Positions 894-64,000 are shown, counted from the stretch's first letter. The stretch is DNA of 64,000 nucleotides from an uncultured Myxococcales bacterium (GCA_903924465.1 CAIYBN010000145.1:17364-81363), one strand, 5' to 3'. Notes: generated by a model not told the origin, from the letters alone. Numbers and translations are program-made.

Positions 894-3800
894 TCACTTG
901 CCGACGTAGACGAGCAGGGAGCGCTTGTGGGTCAGGTTGGGCGTCGAGTAGTTGTCCCAGAGCGCCAAACCGAAGCAATTCGCTGCCTCCCACGGGCTGC
1001 CGGGGTTGTTGACGATCAAGCTCGGGTGGGTTTCGTCGAAGCCGGTCTGATCGCCAATCCAACTGTAGTTGTAATCGAGGGAGTGGTTGCCGGTGTCGCC
1101 GCTTCCCATGACGATTTGCAGCAGGTTGTTCTGCAAGATGGTCGCCGCCTTGTCGGCCGGGAAACCATGGGTGCTGACGATCGCACCGGCCTTGAGACCC
1201 TGAACAAGCGCTCCAGGCAAGAAGACGTTCTGGTTCAGGTCAATCGCGCGCAAGAGCGGCCAGGGCGCACCGGGCGCGCCAGCTGCTGGCTGCTGCCCAC
1301 ACGCGATGCGGATACGTTTCCACTGGGTTGCCGCGCAGTTGGCGGCCCAGCCGCTGTCCGGGATGTCGCTGCTGTAGGGCAGGTCCTGATAGCCGGCGCA
1401 CTGGAAATAGCCCTCGCCTGAGTAGTCCGGACCGATCGCGTTGGGATCGATTCCGCCAGGATTGTTGACCGAGGCCAGCGGGAAATACCAATTGCAGTTC
1501 TCGTCGATGCTGCCGTTGCAGTTGTTGTCGATGCTATCGAAGCATGTCTCAGGTTCGCCCGGGTTGATCAGCACGCCACCCGATTTGGGGTCATCGTTGC
1601 AGTCGTTACCGCCCATCGGGCAAACGGTCGGCTTGCCGATGACAATCAAGTTCGCGTCGCAATACCCGTCGTTGTCCTTGTCACAACCTTCATCGATGTT
1701 GCCGTTGCAGTTGTTGTCCTTGTTGTCGCAGATCTCCGTGTTGCCGGGGAAATCTGCCGCGTTGTTGTCATCGCAGTCGTTGACGTGGGTGATGACAAAA
1801 CCGGTGTAGGGATCCTTGGTTGAGCACACCGCCGGCGCGCCGACGATCTTCTTGGCGGCGCTGCAAAAGCCGTCGCCGTCCGCGTCGCAACCCTCATCGG
1901 TCGCGCCGTTGCAGTCGTTGTCCATGTTGTCGCAGCTCTCCACCGTGCTGTAGAAGATGTTCCACGCTTGGTACTGCGAAGTATCGCATTTGGCCCAAAC
2001 GCCCGCCTTGCACATCGTCGGGGACTTCTTGGTGCCGGCGCACACGCCTTTCTGGGTCTCGCATTGCTGCGGATCGTCGTTGATCATGTCGCCGTCGTCC
2101 GCATCGGTTTTGTCGTCGCAATCGTTGTCGATATTGTCGCAAACTTCCTTCGCGCCGGGGTGCACGTCCGGATCCTCGTCGTTGCAGTCGCCGGGGCCCG
2201 CCAGACACGCGTAGGGGTGGCCGATCGCGCCCATGTTGGCATCGCAGTACCCGTCCAGGTCGTCGTCGCAGCCCTCATCCGTCAGGCCGTTGCAGTCATT
2301 GTCCAGGTTGTCGCAGATTTCCGTTTGCGGCGGACCCGGCTGGACGCTGCACGTCGAGCTGCTGAGATCCGCTTTGCAGACCTTGATGCCTTTGGCGACA
2401 CATTGGCCCTTGCCACCGGCGCAGGGTAGGCCCAAGTCGGGCCAGGTCTCGTCGGTGAGGCCGTTGCAGTCGTCGTCGACGGCATTGCACTTTTCTTTCG
2501 CGTCCGGGCGAATGTCCGGGTTGCCGTCGTTGCAGTCGCCGCCGCCGCCTGGGCACACGTTGGGGCCGCCGAACGTCATCATGTTGGCATCGCACCAACC
2601 GTCCTTGTCCTTGTCGCAGCCTTCATCGGTCACGCCGTTGCAGTTCTCGTCCAAGTTGTCGCAAAGTTCCGGCGCGCCGGGGTACGTCTTGCTGTTGGTA
2701 TCGTCGCAGTCGCCGCCACCTTTGGGGCAGGAGAGCGGAAAGCCGATGGTCGAGAAGCCGGAGTCGCAGTAGCCGTCCTTGTCATCGTCACAGCCCTCGT
2801 CGACCACGCCGTTGCAGTTGTTGTCCTTGTCGTCGCAAACCTCCGCGTTGCTGAAGCTGCTGTCGTATTTCTTGTAGTCGGTCGGGCTGCACGCCTGCCA
2901 AATGCCCCCGGAACAGAGCGAGATGGTCTTGGGCGCGCCAGAGCAGACGCCCAACTGGTTCGCGCAGAATTGCGGGTCGGTGAGCGGCAGGCCGGGATCG
3001 AGCGCATCGACGAAGCCATTGCAGTCGTTGTCCAACCCGTCGCAAATCTCAGGTGCTTTCGGGTGAATCTCATTCTTGGTGTCGTCGCAGTCGCCGCCGC
3101 CCTTGGTGCAGGTCAGCGTGCCTGGCTCGTAACCCATCGTCGCGTCGCAGTAACTGTCCCCGTCGTCGTCGCAGCCTTCGTCGGTCTTGCCATTGCAGTC
3201 GTCGTCAAAGCCATTGCAGGATTCGGTCTGGGGCGCTTGGCCGACGCACGTCTCGATGCCACCCGCGCAAAACGGCTTGCCCGGACATTTCAGCTTGCCG
3301 TTGTTGGACAACACGGAACACGTCGCGCCGGGCACAGCCTCGTCGGTCTGGCCATTGCAATTGTCGTCGATATTATTGCAGATTTCCGCCGTCGGCGTCG
3401 CGGCATCACACTTGGTCAGCACGCCCGTGTCGCAGTGGCGTTTGCCCGCGCAGCGGTCCTTGCCGACCGTGTTGTAGCAAAGCGTCTCGTCGCCTTCGGC
3501 TTCGTAGCGCTTGGTGCAATTCTGATCCAGGCTCGCCTTGTCGGTCACGCACTGCTGGACCAGCTTGCTGTCGGACAACCGCTTGACCTGTTGGCAGGTG
3601 AAATGGGTCGGGCAAAGCTGGCCACTGTCACACGCGCCGCCACAGAACGCGCCGGCATCGCCGAAACTCACACAGTAGTCGCCCAAACCGCCGATGGTCG
3701 CGCCCACGGCGCTTTTGCAGTCGGTGTCGGCCTGACACGGCTTGCCCAGATTGGGCGATCGCGGCACGCAGCCATATTGGACGTCCGGTGGCTCAGCGAG

Positions 3801-7086: not shown

Positions 7087-11625
<4,539 letters not shown>

Positions 11626-56802: not shown

Positions 56803-57444
56803 CTAGCGACGACGACGACGGCGACGATGGCCGTTGCCGCCTTGTCCCTGCCCGTCTTCCGCGCCATTCTCCTGATCCCGCACCGTCTCCGCGACGATCG
56901 CCTTGGGCGCAATCACCAGCCGCCGCCGCTCTGGCGCCCCGTGGTGCAACAGCGTCAGCCCCGGCGTGCGCGAAAGCTGCGCTGTCAGGAACCGCAAATC
57001 GCCCTGACCCAGCGGGCCGATCGCCAGCGATTTGCCCAGCAACTTGCTCTTCTCCGCCAGCGCTTGCGCAACCTTGTCCAGGCCTTCCGGACGGCGGCGA
57101 CGGAACCCATCGGTATCCAGCGACAGCCGCGTGCGGTCCAGTGAAGTCCGGTTGATCGCCTTGTTCAGGATGAACTGCATCGATTCCAGCACCCGCGTGT
57201 CGCCCTGCGGCTGCAACGCCGGATCCAGATCGGATAGCTGCACGATGACCTGATCCTCATCCGCGCGACATTCCACGGTGGGCATCTTGGCGCCGAGCAA
57301 CTCAAAAAGCCGCTGCGCAGTCGCCTGGGCGATCGCGACCTTCTCGGTCAGTGACACGTGTTGCTTGGGCGTGCTGCTTTCCTCGGACGCATCGTCTTCG
57401 GCAACAGCGGGCGCTTCAGTCGCAGTCAATTCCTGCTCGGACAT
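56803..57444 (-). CDS. jag: Jag/KhpB-type RNA-binding protein (Jag-N, KH, R3H)
   Basis: 213 aa downstream of yidC. C-terminal R3H-like region and Arg-rich tail. Canonical position. Confidence 0.8.
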   Translation of the reverse strand: MSEQELTATEAPAVAEDDASEESSTPKQHVSLTEKVAIAQATAQRLFELLGAKMPTVECRADEDQVIVQLSDLDPALQPQGDTRVLESMQFILNKAINRTSLDRTRLSLDTDGFRRRRPEGLDKVAQALAEKSKLLGKSLAIGPLGQGDLRFLTAQLSRTPGLTLLHHGAPERRRLVIAPKAIVAETVRDQENGAEDGQGQGGNGHRRRRRRR

Positions 57445-57458
57445 GTTTTCCTCTTTCT

Positions 57459-59294
57459 CTACAGCGATTTGGCGGAACGATTGACGTACAGCGTCTGCAG
57501 CACACTCAGCACCGTGTTGGCCAGAATGTACAGGGTCAGGCCAGAAGGCAACTGCAGCATCATCGCCGTGAACAAGATGGGCATGAAATACAGCATCATC
57601 TTTTGCTGCGTCGGATCGCCACCGGCTTGCGGCGTCACTTTCTGCTGGGCAAACATCACGCCGCCGAGCAGCAGCGGCAGCACGTAGTACGGATCCTTGG
57701 CGGTCAGATCCGTCACCCAGCCGAACAGCGGCTGGTTGAACAACTCGACCGAGCTGTTGATCGTCCGGTACAATGCAATGTACACTGGCATTTGCAGCAG
57801 CATCGGCAAGCAGCCGCCCAGCGGATTGACGTCGTGCTTCTTGTACAGGTCAAACGTCGCGCGGTTCAGCTCCTGCGGATCCGCCTTCTCCTGACCGAGC
57901 TTCTTGGCCCGCGCTTCCAGATCCGCGCGCACCTTGTCCATCTCAGGCTTCAGCTGCTGCATCTTCTTCATCGACTTCATGCTGCGCGCCGTCACCGGCC
58001 ACAGGAGCACTTTGACGAGCAGCGTAAGGATGAGAATCGCCAGCGGCCACAGCCCGGTGACGTCGTGCGCCCAGCGCAACACCCAGATCATCGGCTTGGC
58101 GATGACGGTGAACCAGCCAAAGTCGACGCTGCCAACCAGTTCGTGGCCGACTTCCTTGAGCGCGTCCAGCTGTTTGGGACCGGCAAACGTCAGGTAGGTC
58201 CACGTCTTGCCGGCGCCTTTGTCATCGCCACACGCCACGCCGCCCCAGGTCTTCTGATACCAGCTGGGCATGCACGTGGCGGCCGGAATCGTCGTCGCAC
58301 CGGTCGTCAGTTGCGCCTGCACGCCGCCTGAGCCACGCGGTACGAGCAGCGTCGCGGTCTTGTCGTCGTAGCCGGTCAGCGGCACTTCAGCGAGCAGGAA
58401 GTAGCGGGAATCCACGCCAAACCAGTCTGGCTTGCCCATCCGCTGACGATCGGGCAAATCGGCCTTGGCCAAACCCGCCAGATCCTGGTGCAGCAGCGCG
58501 CCCGCCTGCCAGAGTCCCGCGCCCTTGTTGTCCGGCGGCGCAGAAAACATCGCGAGCATCCCGCCAGAGCCCGCCGTCGGGTCCTGAAAACTGCTCACCT
58601 GCGACTGCAACGTGACCTGAACCGCCTGTCCGCTCAGGTTCCACGCCGCGAGCTCCACGTCCAGCGACAGCGGCTGTTCGCTGCCAGCCGCCGTCTTGCC
58701 CGCTGGCTTCCAGGTCTTGACCAGGTAAATCGGCGACTGCACTTTCTGCGGATCCGGCCAGATCATCGCCACATGCGCAGCATCGTGACTGAGCACCGCC
58801 CACTGCGGTTCCGCTTTTTGCAACGCCGCCAAGCTCGGCACCGTCTGCGTCATCGTCGAGGCGCCCGCGCGCCGTTGAATCTTCACCGATGGCTGACCCG
58901 CGACGAGCGCCTGGATCAGGTTGTCCTGGAACGGGTCCCAAGGGGCGTCCCACGTCGGCACCAAATCCAGCTGTCCATCTGCATACTTCGCCTTGGCCCA
59001 TCCCGGCAGACCGGCCGGCTCGTGGCGCGCCGTCACGCGAAACTGCGGATCGGTCAAGTGAACGGACTCCAGCGCGCCGGAGCATGGCGACAAGGTCCAG
59101 ATCGCCTGACCGCTGTTCAGCGTCACGCCGGCAACGCCAGGACGGCACGGACCGGCGGGTTTCGCGGCCACTTCCGGTCTGGCCATGCCCGCGGTGGGCG
59201 TCACGGTTGTGGGCAGATCGGCGCGCGCGGGTTTTGCCGGCAAGATGGCCAACAACGCGAAAAGTGTAAGAAAAGTCGAACGGATGACAGTCAT
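57459..59294 (-). CDS. yidC: Membrane protein insertase YidC
   Basis: 611 aa. Large periplasmic domain. Conserved C-terminal TM core (LPMLLQMPVYIALYRTINSSVELFNQPLFGWVTDL). Confidence 0.93.
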   Translation of the reverse strand: MTVIRSTFLTLFALLAILPAKPARADLPTTVTPTAGMARPEVAAKPAGPCRPGVAGVTLNSGQAIWTLSPCSGALESVHLTDPQFRVTARHEPAGLPGWAKAKYADGQLDLVPTWDAPWDPFQDNLIQALVAGQPSVKIQRRAGASTMTQTVPSLAALQKAEPQWAVLSHDAAHVAMIWPDPQKVQSPIYLVKTWKPAGKTAAGSEQPLSLDVELAAWNLSGQAVQVTLQSQVSSFQDPTAGSGGMLAMFSAPPDNKGAGLWQAGALLHQDLAGLAKADLPDRQRMGKPDWFGVDSRYFLLAEVPLTGYDDKTATLLVPRGSGGVQAQLTTGATTIPAATCMPSWYQKTWGGVACGDDKGAGKTWTYLTFAGPKQLDALKEVGHELVGSVDFGWFTVIAKPMIWVLRWAHDVTGLWPLAILILTLLVKVLLWPVTARSMKSMKKMQQLKPEMDKVRADLEARAKKLGQEKADPQELNRATFDLYKKHDVNPLGGCLPMLLQMPVYIALYRTINSSVELFNQPLFGWVTDLTAKDPYYVLPLLLGGVMFAQQKVTPQAGGDPTQQKMMLYFMPILFTAMMLQLPSGLTLYILANTVLSVLQTLYVNRSAKSL

Positions 59295-59680
59295 TGCTGG
59301 GTCTCACAGGGCGAACTGGTGGAAATCGCGACAGGGGCGGCGGCACGCCACCGGCCATTCCAGGGACCGGGCGGCACCGGATCGTGACCGCCGACACACA
59401 TCGGTTGGCAACGCAGCAGGCGCCAGGCCGTCAACACCAGCGCGCGCGGGACGCGGTGCTGCTGGAACGCTTGCGCGGCGTAGTGCGAGCACGTCGGCTC
59501 AAACCGGCAGGCGGGCGGCAAAAGTCGAGACAGCGTGCGCTGATACAGACGAATCAAAGCCAACAGCGGCAACGCCAGCCAGTAGTCGAGGCGAGCGGCC
59601 GGCGGATCGGACGGTGTCGGTGCGTGCGCGAGCGTCAAGGTGGCCGACTCCGGATAGGGCGTACGACAAATTGCGTCCAT
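59291..59680 (-). CDS. yidD: Membrane protein insertion efficiency factor YidD (start uncertain)
   Basis: LIRLYQRTLSRLLPPACRFEPTCSHYAAQAF...CQPMCVGGHDPVPPGP matches the YidD signature. Stop overlaps the yidC ATG (ATGA). True start probably an internal/alternative codon closer to LDYWLALPLLA. Confidence 0.7.
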   Translation of the reverse strand: MDAICRTPYPESATLTLAHAPTPSDPPAARLDYWLALPLLALIRLYQRTLSRLLPPACRFEPTCSHYAAQAFQQHRVPRALVLTAWRLLRCQPMCVGGHDPVPPGPWNGRWRAAAPVAISTSSPCETQQ

Positions 59681-59751
59681 CACCTGCCAACTCGTATCGC
59701 CGTGCGCATGGCTGGCAGCGGCGCTCAAGACAGTGATTCTGCCGTGAGCCC

Positions 59752-60165
59752 CTAGTCGATCAATCGCAGCTTCTTGCCAAGAAGCATCATTTCCTCAAGC
59801 ACGTCAACCAGTTGCGCATTCGGCCACGGAAGTCGCGCGCTGACGACCAGATCCACGGGGCGCCGCAACGCGGGCCGCAGCACCCGAAAGGCTTCCCGCG
59901 TCAGGCGGCGCAACCGGGCCCTCGCGGGCGCATGGCCAACACCCTTCGCCACCGCGAGGCCCAGCCGTGGCGGGGCGTCTTGCTCGCGCGGCGGGCTGGC
60001 AATCAGGTGGATGTGGTGCCCGTGAGCCCGTCGTCCACGCTGGAAAACGCGGTCAAAGTCGCGCTTGTACTGCAGCCGACTTCCGCGCCCCAACGATCCG
60101 TGTGGCGCCGGAATTTCGCCCGGAGACGCCGGATCAGCCGACGCAGCAGGCGGCGGCGCGATCAC
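59752..60165 (-). CDS. rnpA: Ribonuclease P protein component
   Basis: [26 protein letters not shown]...[27 protein letters not shown], typical RnpA. GTG start overlapping the rpmH stop (GTGA). Confidence 0.85.
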
Positions 60166-60308
60166 TTCGTCGAGACCGACATGCGCAGGCGGCCCTTGGC
60201 GCGACGGCGGTTCAACACTGCGCGGCCATTCTTGGTGGCCATGCGTGCACGAAAGCCGTGGGTACGGAGCTTGGAGATTTTGCTGGGATTGCCTAGACCT
60301 TTCTTCAC
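60162..60308 (-). CDS. rpmH: 50S ribosomal protein L34
   Basis: Reverse complement translates (GTG start) to [48 protein letters not shown]. Canonical rpmH-rnpA-yidD-yidC-jag order. Not in the ORF track (under 60 aa). Confidence 0.85.
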
Positions 60309-61041
60309 GTTACGTTCCTCGGTTCATGGGTTGGCGCGGCGATTGCCCAAACGAAACAGCGCAGTCTGCTCACTTTGGAAGATCAACCGGACGCCCGTTC
60401 AACACACACCTGCAAAAGCAGCGGGGGCGGAAGTGTACACCAACCTGCGGAAAATGCGAGTCCCTTCGCGCATCGCCGGCTGGGCGTGCGCGGTCGCCGC
60501 TGAGACCGCGGCGATCGCGAAACCGTCGTCATCCGCAGTCCGTGCGGCAACTGGTTGATTCTGCTTGGGTCTGGCAAGCACGCGTAAATTCGCATGGTTA
60601 GAAGGAACGACGGCAATCTCGCTGTGCATCATAGGGTTACCCCCGTCCGCACCGGCAATCGTGTCAACGGCGTACGGTGCAAAATGTCAACCTCGTCACG
60701 ATACTGCCATTTGGTTCAATGGGTTGCGCTCCTTTCCAGTCAGGTAATCGAGGCAAATTTGCGGCCCCCCCTTGTCGACGTTCGGGCGCCGCGGTACCAA
60801 TGGACTGGCCAGCCACTTCACCCGGCGCCGTCCCTGCAAAGGGCCGTTCGTGCGTTGGTGAAGAACTGGACGAAACGATTTGGACAATCTGACGAGACGT
60901 CACCGACAACTCCGCGTGGATGCTGTGCTGCAAAGCATGTGGTCCGTGCTGTTTTCCGGGACACGACAAATGCATCGCACGCTTGGACCGCAACACCGAA
61001 TTCTTCCCTAACACCGAACCTTTCCGCATCGATGGACATGC

Positions 61042-61086
61042 TGCCCAACTCGCCCAACTCGCCCAACTCGCCCAACTCGCCCAACT
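61042..61086 (+). repeat. Tandem 9-bp repeat (CGCCCAACT) x5, first copy TGCCCAACT, 45 bp upstream of the preferred dnaA start
   Basis: Direct reading: tgcccaact cgcccaact cgcccaact cgcccaact cgcccaact tgacc. It would encode (PNS)n only if dnaA started at the upstream ATG 61032. Confidence 0.9.
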
Positions 61087-61130
61087 TGACCGAGTCTTCC
61101 GAAACGCCGCGCCATGCGCGTTCCGCAGGC

Positions 61131-62639
61131 ATGGGCGAGGGCGTCACGGGGGGCGAAACGCCGGACGAAATCCGCGCCGTTTGGCAGCAGACCTTGGCGC
61201 GACTGCGGACCCTCACGCGACGCTCGGTCGTTGACGCGTGGTTTGACAAGGTCATCGTCCACGCCGCCGGTCCAGCCGGTTTCGTTCTGGAAGTGCCCGA
61301 TGAGCACTTTCGCGACGTGATTGCCCAGCAACATTTGGCGCCGTTGCGCAGGGCCATCGAGGCCAATGGCCACGGACAGCCCGCGATCGAGTTGCGCGTG
61401 ACCGATGATGGGTCATCGCAGGAATCCGGTCCCGAGGCCGCAATGGCCGACCACCTCGCCGTTCACGGCACGTACGCCGCAGATCCGCTGTTTGCCGCCG
61501 ATCCTCGCTTTGCCAACGCCACGGCGCGCGACACGCTGGATGTTGCCAATACCTTGGAGGCCAGTAGCTCGCTGGTGCCGCGCTTCACGTTTGGCAACTT
61601 TGTCGAAGGTGAATCGAACCAGTTGGCACTTTCCGCAGCGCGCACCGTGGCCGAGCATCCCGGCGAGACGGTCAATCCGGTGTTCCTGTACGGCGGCGTC
61701 GGTTTGGGCAAGACGCATCTGCTGCATGCGATTGGCAACGCCGTGACCGCGCGTCACCCGCACTTGCGCGTGCGCTACGTGCCCGCGGAGACGTTCGCCG
61801 ACGACACGATTTCCGCCATGCGGTCCCGCGACGCGTCCGTGCGTGTCGATGTTCGTGCGTTCTACCGCAACGTGGACGTGCTGCTGTTGGACGATGTGCA
61901 GTTCCTGCAAGGCAAGGAAAAGACTCAAGAAGAGTTTTTCCACACGTTCAACGCGCTGTTTCTGGCCGGCAAGCAAATCGTGCTGACCTGCGACCGCTTT
62001 CCGTCTGAGCTGCACGACTTCCACGAGCGGCTGCGGTCGCGTTTTGAGAACGGGCTGACCGCGGGCATTTCACCGCCGGACCGCGATCTGCGCGTGGCCA
62101 TCCTTCGGCAACGTGCGGCGCAACACACCGCGGCGCGTCTGGCGGGCGAAGCGGGCCCTTCGACCGACCTGGCAAATCAGCACGTGCCTTTGGACGTCAT
62201 CTACTATCTTGCCGACCACTTGCGCAATAATGTGCGAGAGTTGGAAGGCGCGCTGCACAAGCTGTTTGCCCACGCGAAGCTTGGAAAGCGGCCGATCGAC
62301 TTGGCCCTGGCGCGCGCGGCGCTTGGGCCCATCATCGAATTGCCGTCGCGCCATCTCACCGTGGAAGTGATTCAGCGTGTCACGGCGCAGCACTATGGTC
62401 TGCGGGTGACGGATTTGAAGGGAGCCAAGCGCCACCGTGGCGTCGTGGTGCCGCGCATGGTTGCCGTATGGCTCACGCGCAAGCACACCCAGGCTTCGTT
62501 TCCGGAAATTGGCCGGTCGTTTGGCGGCCGGGATCACTCGACCGCGATCCACGCGTGCCAGAAGATCGACTGGCTTGTGCAAACCGATCCGGCCGTTCAG
62601 TCGGCCGTCCAGGCGATCGAGACGACGCTGGGCAAGTAG
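61131..62639 (+). CDS. dnaA: Chromosomal replication initiator protein DnaA
   Basis: N-terminal IRAVWQQTLARLRTL..., AAA+ Walker A GGVGLGKTHLLHAIG, Walker B LLLDDVQFL, C-terminal DNA-binding helix-turn-helix domain (RSFGGRDHSTAIHACQKI). Alternative start ATG 61032 would add 33 aa including the PNS repeat. Confidence 0.9.
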   Translation: MGEGVTGGETPDEIRAVWQQTLARLRTLTRRSVVDAWFDKVIVHAAGPAGFVLEVPDEHFRDVIAQQHLAPLRRAIEANGHGQPAIELRVTDDGSSQESGPEAAMADHLAVHGTYAADPLFAADPRFANATARDTLDVANTLEASSSLVPRFTFGNFVEGESNQLALSAARTVAEHPGETVNPVFLYGGVGLGKTHLLHAIGNAVTARHPHLRVRYVPAETFADDTISAMRSRDASVRVDVRAFYRNVDVLLLDDVQFLQGKEKTQEEFFHTFNALFLAGKQIVLTCDRFPSELHDFHERLRSRFENGLTAGISPPDRDLRVAILRQRAAQHTAARLAGEAGPSTDLANQHVPLDVIYYLADHLRNNVRELEGALHKLFAHAKLGKRPIDLALARAALGPIIELPSRHLTVEVIQRVTAQHYGLRVTDLKGAKRHRGVVVPRMVAVWLTRKHTQASFPEIGRSFGGRDHSTAIHACQKIDWLVQTDPAVQSAVQAIETTLGK

Positions 62640-62669
62640 CCAGCGACCGAGTTGGCCACACGATCGGGT

Positions 62670-63071
62670 TCAGAGGGCCGGAATCGACGCGCGCGGAGCC
62701 ATCGCTCCATGCACTGCGGACCGCAACTCTTCTGCCAGAAATGGCTTTTCCACGCAGGGGTTGGGCACGCGCGCCAGGAACTCGCCGGCTTTGCCGACAA
62801 AAGCCCCGCCCGTCAGAAAGACCATCGTCGCCGCATGAGGTGATTGCCGGGCTTCCAGCGCTGCGTGCACATCCATCCCGGTCAGTTCCGGCATCATGAG
62901 ATCGCACAACAGCAGGTCAAAGTCGTCCTGTGCGAGCAACAGGTCCAGACCGACCTGACCGCGCGTGACGGACACCACGTCGAAGCGCGCGCCGAGGAGC
63001 CGAGCGATGAGGCTGCCGATGAGCGGTTCATCGTCGATCACCAGAATGCGCGGGCGTTTGGGATGCGGCAT
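62670..63071 (-). CDS. Single-domain response regulator (CheY-like receiver)
   Basis: RILVIDDEPLIGSLIARLL...DLLLCDLMMPELTGMD...VFLTG: receiver fold with phospho-acceptor Asp, no output domain. Confidence 0.85.
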   Translation of the reverse strand: MPHPKRPRILVIDDEPLIGSLIARLLGARFDVVSVTRGQVGLDLLLAQDDFDLLLCDLMMPELTGMDVHAALEARQSPHAATMVFLTGGAFVGKAGEFLARVPNPCVEKPFLAEELRSAVHGAMAPRASIPAL

Positions 63072-63215
63072 GAATGGGTGAACGAGCGCGCGAGCAAGCG
63101 CCTGATCATGCTACGCCAAGGATTTTGCCCTCGCAACGCAGCCATTTCGCGGTGTCGTTTGTGACGTCGGCCAACATGCGGCACGATAGCGCTCGGGCAC
63201 GTCCGGGAGCCGTCG

Positions 63216-63944
63216 ATGAATCCACCGCCAGATCACCCCGCCCGCGGTCGCCACTACCGTTTCTATGACCTGCTGATGGCTGGATTCGTGACGGTGCTCT
63301 TGTGCTCCAACATGATTGGTCCAGGCAAGTCGTGTGTCATCGATCTCCTTGGATACAAATTGGTTTTTGGCGCCGGTAACGTATTCTTCCCGATTTCCTA
63401 CGTCTTCGGCGACGTGCTGACCGAAGTGTATGGCTATGCCCGGGCGCGCAAGGTCATCTGGGCCGGCTTTGCCGCGATGATCTTTGCCGCACTGATGAGT
63501 TGGGGGATCATCCACCTGCCCGTGAACCCAGCAGAACCGTACAACAAGGTGATCCAACCGGGCCTGGAAACGGTGTTCGGTAACACCGCGCGGGTCGTCA
63601 TGGCGTCCATGATCGCGTTTTGGGCCGGCGACTTCGTCAACAGCCTGGTCCTGGCAAAAATGAAGGTGGCCACGCGGGGAAAGTGGCTTTGGACGCGGAC
63701 CATCGGCTCGACTGTGGCAGGTCAGGGCGTGGACAGCCTCTTGTTCTACCCCATTGCCTTTGCCACGTTGTGGTCGACAGACACTTTGCTGCAAGTGATT
63801 CTATTCAATTGGCTTTTCAAGGTTGGCGTCGAGGTCATCATGACGCCATTTACCTACGCATTGGTAGGATTTTTGAAACGCGCGGAGAAAGAGGACTTTT
63901 TCGATACCGACACGCAATTTTCGCCATTTTCCCTGAAGGATTAA
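63216..63944 (+). CDS. yhhQ: YhhQ/Vut-family queuosine-precursor transporter (DUF165)
   Basis: 242-aa multi-TM protein. LLCSNMIGPGKSCVIDLLGYKLVFGAGNVFFPISYVFGDVLTEVYGY is typical of the YhhQ family. Confidence 0.78.
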   Translation: MNPPPDHPARGRHYRFYDLLMAGFVTVLLCSNMIGPGKSCVIDLLGYKLVFGAGNVFFPISYVFGDVLTEVYGYARARKVIWAGFAAMIFAALMSWGIIHLPVNPAEPYNKVIQPGLETVFGNTARVVMASMIAFWAGDFVNSLVLAKMKVATRGKWLWTRTIGSTVAGQGVDSLLFYPIAFATLWSTDTLLQVILFNWLFKVGVEVIMTPFTYALVGFLKRAEKEDFFDTDTQFSPFSLKD

Positions 63945-64000
63945 GCTGATGCGCAGCCCGTTTGTGATCCTGTGCGGCTCTCTGATTTGCCTTGCCGCTT

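Follow-up and report, generated by a model that had tools for sequence, protein, structure and literature searches.

A perfect 9-bp tandem array, probably within the dnaA reading frame, and the divergent rpmH-dnaA region of an uncultured Myxococcales bacterium

In an uncultured Myxococcales bacterium, a perfect tandem array of a 9-bp unit is found where dnaA begins. We consider it fairly likely that this array arose recently, within one lineage, as an in-frame tandem duplication in the 5' end of the gene, and that the spacer separating dnaA from the divergently oriented rpmH is a promoter region and not oriC. The analysis was carried out on a stretch of 64 kb (hereafter the window, from whose first base all coordinates are counted unless another record is named). 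The window has a GC content of 62-63%, and the nearest relatives among public records are bins from lake metagenomes that carry the label uncultured Myxococcales.

According to the proposed course of events, a single ancestral stretch of P-N/S-L-T-E codons would have given rise to a duplicated CCC-AAC-TCG unit of 9 bp. The resulting array would grow and shrink by replication slippage, and its copies would add (Pro-Asn-Ser)n to a disordered leader ahead of DnaA domain I. Since the length of the unit is a multiple of three, changes in copy number never shift the frame, and, because the leader is already variable in length, such changes are probably tolerated and would be neutral or nearly so. 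The spacer itself would serve as a divergent rpmH/dnaA regulatory region, with conserved islands in the rpmH-proximal 500 bp and a fast-evolving, duplication-prone stretch of 200 bp near dnaA.

Gene order and structure of the array

An earlier interpretation, made from the sequence alone (the sequence-only reading), had proposed that rpmH, rnpA, yidD and yidC diverge from dnaA, and this order was borne out by Pfam (Table 1). The ORF that had been named jag (56803-57444) does match the NCBIfam Jag/EloR model, but with 56 bits it stays below the cutoff of 145. The start region of rpmH (60290-60326) showed no differences across four relatives. Window DnaA could be assigned to its family by a full-length match to TIGR00362 above the curated cutoff (464.5 bits, cutoff 343.9; residues 51-533, model position 1 corresponding to residue 51) and by the presence of both the AAA+ and the helix-turn-helix domain. 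On the 3' side of dnaA (62640-63944), a convergent response regulator gene comes first, 30 bp away, and a Vut_1 transporter gene next. The dnaN gene is absent from the 64-kb window and does not adjoin dnaA in this lineage.

Table 1. Coordinates of genes, candidate regulatory elements and repeats in the window
Feature	Position	Strand	Basis or remark
yidC	57459-59294	-	Pfam
yidD	59291-59728	-	Pfam
rnpA	59752-60165	-	Pfam
rpmH (ribosomal protein L34), GTG start 60308	60162-60308	-	Pfam Ribosomal_L34, E 1.5e-17
rpmH-dnaA spacer	60309-61031	.	non-coding, 723 bp if dnaA starts at 61032
Island 1, candidate rpmH promoter, contains GGAAAATGCGAGTCCCTT	60410-60466	-	alignment
Palindromic island GCGATCGCG	60511-60519	.	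identical in four lineages; CGATCG core in six
TGTCAAC pair	60662-60668, 60685-60691	.	direct repeat, 23 bp apart; minus strand reads TTGACA
Island CCCCCTTGTCG, 17 nt, TACCAA; candidate dnaA promoter	60767-60800	+	alignment
Hypervariable zone before dnaA	60840-61031	.	four-way identity
Lone DnaA-box-like 9-mer TTGTCCAAA	60879-60887	-	one in the 723-bp spacer, background rate
dnaA, long form, probable start ATG 61038 or 61032	61032-62639	+	TIGR00362, Pfam Bac_DnaA and Bac_DnaA_C
Perfect period-9 array	61043-61086	+	TRF: 4.9 copies, 100% match
Alternative in-frame ATG, dnaA start of the sequence-only reading	61131-61133	+	14 codons before the RAVWQQ anchor

The array had been described as five perfect 9-bp repeats. 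It is real, as the TRF result confirms, but the description is one base too generous: in the phase used there, TGCCCAACT (61042-61050) precedes four perfect copies of CGCCCAACT (61051-61086). Read in codon phase, the array consists of four copies of CCCAACTCG (61044-61079) and a final CCCAACTTG (61080-61088), that is CCC-AAC-TCG four times and then CCC-AAC-TTG in the frame of dnaA, encoding (PNS)4-PNL. A perfect periodic run of 44 nt cannot be explained by chance, and outside the array the window has the 9-mer only singly, at scattered places.

Copy number, start codon and probable translation of the array

An independent ENA assembly of 7,420 bp (L081) was aligned to window positions 57575-64000. 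Over 6,417 bp, the two assemblies differ by one SNP (59753) and by one 9-bp unit, the array having five units in the window and four in L081. The corresponding DnaA proteins read MDMLPNSPNSPNSPNSPNLTES in the window and MDMLPNSPNSPNSPNLTES in L081 (P0001). A comparison of copy number, as suggested in the sequence-only reading, thus revealed a difference between otherwise near-identical assemblies. It also backs the alternative offered there, a slippage-prone repeat that would vary a PNS motif if dnaA started at 61032, the term slippage-prone being based on this single four-versus-five difference between the only two alleles known.

In L001, L002 and L082, whose DnaA proteins are 82-85% identical to that of the window, a single unit is found at the homologous place (PSLTE/ANLPE). 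For example, GCCCAGCTTGACCGAGACT of L002 (PSLTET) aligns with GCCCAACTTGACCGAGTCT of the window (PNLTES). When a 27-nt probe of three units was compared with 95 loci, L081 was the sole match. Since the relatives carry a single unit, the array is lineage-specific and not a conserved binding array; absence from close relatives had been named beforehand as the finding that would speak against binding sites. Together, these comparisons point to a recent expansion of one ancestral unit. A scan of JGI metagenomes for the ATG followed by two units gave two unrelated chance matches and no further allele. Likewise, exact look-ups of hypothetical proteins with 0, 1, 2, 5 or 6 PNS units and with three alternative starts returned no matches in a collection from which the window's own DnaA protein is absent.

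A difference of one unit between two assemblies, both of them metagenomic, could also arise as an artefact of assembly or consensus calling, the length of the array being in truth fixed. We regard this as very unlikely. The array (44-45 bp) is shorter than the k of 141 suggested by the contig name of L081 (k141_594281) and probably shorter than the reads too (read length is not known here), which makes a collapse of the repeat unlikely. Moreover, window and L081 agree at all but one of the 6,417 positions.

Three in-frame ATG codons are candidates for the start of dnaA in the window, at 61032, 61038 and 61131 (the last had been given as 61132). L082, L002, L001 and L083 each have exactly one in-frame upstream ATG, whose distance to the RAVWQ anchor of domain I is 35, 29, 32 and 32 codons, respectively. 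These ATGs align (CCCATGCC / CTGATGCC / CCCATGTC) amid a nearly unalignable zone. The window ATGs 61032 and 61038 lie 47 and 45 codons before the anchor, or 35 and 33 codons when the four extra units are subtracted, and in all lineages the distance from ATG to anchor is divisible by three despite many indels. Furthermore, ATG-CTG-CCC of the window (MLP; MLPN...) matches the ATG-CTC-CCC (MLPT) at the dnaA start of L084, and at the protein level the lineages have a leader motif in common, (N/S)L(T/P)E(T/S)..R, whose codons differ synonymously. Composition points in the same direction in the window, where GC3 of the leader (array collapsed) is 0.80 versus 0.46 just upstream; in L082 and L001 the support from GC3 is nil. 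A C-rich, G-poor zone extends 45 nt to either side of the conserved ATG (window 60987-61076) in six lineages, namely the window, L082, L002, L001, L083 and L084, with C at 0.36-0.49 and G at 0.11-0.27 as compared with about 0.33 each in the gene body. The ATG at 61131 has no homologous ATG in the relatives, in which only scattered, non-homologous GTGs occur at this place.

Since an upstream ATG matching 61038/61032 is conserved and 61131 is without counterpart, the array is probably translated. On this comparative evidence we hold it quite likely that the array forms part of dnaA, with translation probably beginning at ATG 61038 or 61032. Consequently, the array would not lie immediately upstream of dnaA, as had been stated, but probably inside its reading frame, and the conserved ATG and preserved frame of the relatives argue for the PNS-repeat interpretation that had been mentioned as the alternative.

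If, on the other hand, dnaA started at ATG 61131 or elsewhere near domain I, the array would belong to the 5' untranslated leader of the mRNA, either as a neutral simple repeat or as a C/A-rich unstructured tract that tunes translation or mRNA stability by its length. ATG 61131 is in frame and close to the anchor, an ATG or GTG is found within 1-14 codons of domain I in every lineage, and the start called in L084 lies 9 codons before it. In addition, the upstream ATGs 61032 and 61038 lack a convincing Shine-Dalgarno sequence, as does 61131, and the RNA around the start folds no more stably than shuffled sequences (z = -0.24), as expected of an unstructured region. However, the proximal candidates are non-homologous and differ in position and codon, whereas the upstream ATG aligns in L082, L002, L001, L083 and L084 although the surrounding zone does not. 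The frame preserved through many indels, the motif common at the protein level and the rise of GC3 at 61032 likewise disagree with an untranslated leader, which we therefore consider unlikely.

In a translated array, (PNS)n would probably be part of a disordered leader of about 45 residues preceding domain I. An AlphaFold2 model based on a 21-sequence alignment assigned residues 1-41 a pLDDT below 50 and no secondary structure, and predicted the first helix of domain I at residues 44-61. Domain I thus begins near residue 44-51 of the long form. The leader is rich in Pro, Ser and Thr, poorly conserved, and variable among relatives both in sequence and in length (13-50 residues).

Further downstream, the linker of DnaA domain II contains an imperfect in-frame duplication of 18 bp (61476-61514; TRF 2.2 copies, 80% match). 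It encodes AADPLF/AADPRF and is kept in P0002-P0006, and hence is older than the clade. A sub-threshold match to the Rfam family AsdA was also observed inside dnaA, on the minus strand at 61689-61765 (35.7 bits, gathering score 52, E 8.8e-05). AsdA is the antisense RNA of Salmonella dnaA; rather than an RNA gene, the match probably mirrors the conserved coding sequence of dnaA.

The rpmH-dnaA spacer as promoter region or replication origin

The spacer is without codon-position GC periodicity. A permissive Rfam search of 59500-63500 gave nothing in the spacer, its sole match being the one inside dnaA, and a strict scan for sigma-70 and terminator consensus sequences returned no promoter and one terminator-like site at chance level. 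Alignment of seven lineages revealed short invariant islands between variable sequence. Within island 1, positions 60432-60437 read TACACT on the reverse complement, a -10-like hexamer, with a GC-rich discriminator after it; positions 60449-60466 do not differ among four lineages, and L083 and L084 also have the GCGGGGGC..AGTNTACAC core. The island closest to dnaA comprises a -35-like hexamer (60772-60777) and a -10-like hexamer (60795-60800), and its TTG(T/C)C(G/C)-N17-TA pattern, which fails the strict consensus scan, is retained in six lineages. Based on conservation and these resemblances, promoter roles for 60410-60466 and 60767-60800 are plausible, with candidate transcription starts at about 60425 (minus strand, rpmH) and about 60807 (plus strand, dnaA). 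Between them, the TGTCAAC pair is identical in four lineages and its first copy in six; a regulator site or a set of -35 elements is possible. DnaA boxes (3 mismatches), MrpC-like sites and sigma-54 elements were considered for this pair, and none fits. The palindromic island is located in the right arm of an inverted repeat (60489-60500 / 60508-60519). This repeat, spanning 60489-60519, has arms of 12 nt that are 92% complementary and a loop of 7 nt. The conserved islands in the rpmH-proximal 500 bp are probably promoter and operator elements.

Closer to dnaA, four-way identity amounts to 0-8% over 60840-61039 and to 10% over 61040-61089, the segment that holds the array. Other lineages have duplications of their own in this hypervariable zone. 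L083 contains two perfect 16-bp duplications (2.1 copies at 9745-9778 and 2.5 copies at 9872-9911 of that record), and L003 a perfect 20-bp duplication (2.1 copies at 3715-3756). Tandem duplication is therefore a recurrent mode of change in this zone, and the 9-bp array of the window is one more such duplication, happening to fall in the reading frame.

Bacterial origins located next to dnaA, either between rpmH and dnaA or between dnaA and dnaN, combine a cluster of DnaA boxes with an AT-rich unwinding element. The main claim of the sequence-only reading was that the spacer is a candidate oriC with an iteron-like array. On this explanation, the 9-bp units would be binding sites for DnaA or another initiator-associated factor. 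The gene neighborhood is indeed the classical origin-proximal one, and the absence of dnaN downstream means that the usual dnaA-dnaN spacer is not on offer in the window. DnaA boxes were searched as 9-mers that deviate from TTATCCACA or TTGTCCACA by no more than one base. In the entire 64-kb window there are 10 such sites versus 10.4 expected, and nowhere do they form a cluster. The near-consensus box reported in the spacer is present as a 9-mer (TTGTCCAAA), but such 9-mers are no more frequent than expected by chance, and relatives do not retain this one, which lies in a zone of 0% four-way identity that is the least conserved part of the spacer. No DnaA box was found in the homologous spacers of L001, L002 and L082, and in the window and seven relatives the number of boxes between rpmH and dnaA is 0-1. 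With up to two mismatches, the spacer shows a mild excess of box-like 9-mers (6 versus 2.2 +/- 1.4 per tile), so that DnaA may bind there weakly in autoregulation, but no 9-mer is kept as a box across lineages.

In contrast, the clusters known from relatives comprise 3-7 boxes in 200-600 bp and are located upstream of dnaN. In five related lineages in which dnaA-dnaN-recF is intact, they occupy the dnaA-dnaN spacer, with seven boxes in L083 (one a perfect TTATCCACA), four each in L085/86, L087/88 and L092/93, and three in L090. A cluster in this place, combined with a GC-skew minimum elsewhere, had been named in advance as an observation that would count against an origin in the rpmH-dnaA spacer; the relatives provide the cluster and thus speak only indirectly for the lineage of the window. 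Two further related lineages (L100-L102; L098) have dnaN-recF without dnaA upstream, and neither could be tied to the lineage of the window. Within about 190 bp before dnaN, L101 and L102 contain five boxes (at most one mismatch), while L100, in which the contig ends within the spacer, has three; no box cluster precedes dnaN in L098. The stretches compared for dnaN linkage and boxes were 11627-12220 of L083, 5039-5558 of L101 and 5660-6000 of L098. Since the DNA-binding signature of DnaA (GGRDHSTAIHAC, KRHRGVVVPRM) is identical in the window and in P0011, the DnaA of L083, whose origin has canonical boxes, a changed specificity of DnaA does not explain the lack of boxes in the spacer.

The relatively AT-richer stretch noted earlier at about 60660-60770 exists, with a lowest 100-bp GC of 0.49 (60661-60760) that falls into the lowest 0.6% of windows. 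However, it is mild: the longest run of A and T in the spacer is 6 nt, and a real AT-rich unwinding element was not found in it. GC skew is -0.041 over the left 60 kb and +0.011 over the mere 1.4 kb to the right, and its cumulative minimum is located near 62 kb, in a window that reaches only 1.4 kb past dnaA. Beyond dnaA, L001 and L002 keep a skew of -0.02 over the next 4 kb, and in L083 it flips at dnaA/dnaN from -0.047 to +0.085.

Thus, negative skew on the left with a minimum near dnaA, low local GC and the mild excess of two-mismatch sites would suit an origin. Against them stand the single chance-level box, the position of the clusters in relatives, the unchanged DNA-binding domain, short A/T runs and a skew that in L001 and L002 is still negative 4 kb beyond dnaA, as well as an array that is missing in relatives, variable in copy number, contiguous and in the dnaA frame, and whose 9-mer otherwise occurs as scattered single copies. 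In sequence, nothing in 60309-61031 resembles the origins seen in related lineages. An oriC with iteron-like sites is the least probable of the explanations considered, its likelihood being very small, and the rpmH-dnaA spacer is most likely an ordinary promoter region.

Relation to known systems and possible significance

In-frame repeat variants are known from the pe/ppe genes of Mycobacterium tuberculosis, and such variation is well documented in bacteria (PMC12817950). In its behavior, the array described here is most likely an ordinary coding tandem repeat that keeps the reading frame. In common with coding VNTR or minisatellite arrays, it consists of short, perfect head-to-tail units (4.9 copies, 100% match) whose length of 9 bp is a multiple of three, in frame with dnaA, translation being probable on sequence evidence. 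As in such arrays, copy number differs between nearly identical genomes, with slippage as the presumed cause, and the repeat falls in a low-complexity, disordered protein segment. Unlike the pe/ppe repeats, its host is no surface or antigen gene; it is located in the N-terminal leader of DnaA, the essential replication initiator. A further difference is that only two alleles have been seen. The array is slightly unusual for its host gene and for its position directly after the start codon.

Other systems resemble the region in part. The phase-variable contingency loci of Neisseria and Haemophilus likewise have a repeat tract at the 5' end that changes length by slippage. In those loci, a frameshift or an altered promoter spacing turns the gene on or off, whereas a 9-bp unit cannot shift the frame, dnaA is essential, and the array lies downstream of both the candidate dnaA promoter and the upstream ATG. 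Iterons of plasmid and secondary-chromosome origins are also direct tandem repeats near a replication initiator gene. They are about 17-22 bp long, spaced in helical register and conserved, and the cognate Rep protein that binds them has its gene close by. In contrast, the array has contiguous units of 9 bp that lie in a reading frame, vary in number and are confined to one lineage, and no Rep gene is found beside it, the neighbors being rpmH, dnaA, and then the response regulator and Vut_1 transporter genes. With an oriC beside dnaA the spacer has in common its position between rpmH and dnaA, the negative skew to its left and a slightly AT-richer stretch, but it differs in having no DnaA-box cluster, no DUE-like AT tract and no conserved box-like site. 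In Escherichia coli, rpmH and dnaA share a divergent promoter region in which dnaAp1 and dnaAp2 are subject to autoregulation by DnaA. The region studied here is similar in its divergent genes and in a long spacer with conserved short islands; it differs in that no conserved consensus DnaA box is found between the candidate promoters, whose hexamers are weak matches and unmapped. Within the collection of literature searched, no description of dnaA-leader repeats or of a myxobacterial oriC layout was found.

The C/A-rich tract after the dnaA start could in principle be a tunable element, in which the number of units alters initiation efficiency or the behavior of the N-terminal tail. If so, slippage would create heritable, reversible variation in initiator dosage and in the frequency of replication initiation, and an essential cell-cycle gene would thereby have a dial of the contingency-like kind. 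Such a dosage-tuning role finds no support here, and we consider it highly improbable. The array would be of biological importance only if copy number altered the level or activity of DnaA, and practical consequences are limited.

For annotation, the comparison suggests that dnaA of this clade probably begins some 45 codons ahead of domain I, and that gene order alone is no basis for taking an rpmH-dnaA spacer as oriC. In the lake Myxococcota compared here, the DnaA-box cluster, wherever seen, accompanies dnaN, and in the lineage of the window dnaN has moved away from dnaA. The array itself could be used as a strain marker.

Some records of relatives deserve mention in this context. At the SNP position 59753 (2179 in L081), the TAG stop codon of rnpA is TCG in L081, leading to read-through of rnpA there. 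Gene callers then overlooked both rnpA and rpmH in that assembly and predicted a spurious ORF in antisense orientation. Two bins, L003 (CAMDBH010000088.1) and L066 (CAMDGF010000017.1), are both titled 'Klebsiella pneumoniae' MAG. The DnaA of L003 is 70% identical to that of the myxobacterial window, and the rnpA-rpmH-dnaA order is shared; judged by sequence, the taxon label of these bins looks wrong.
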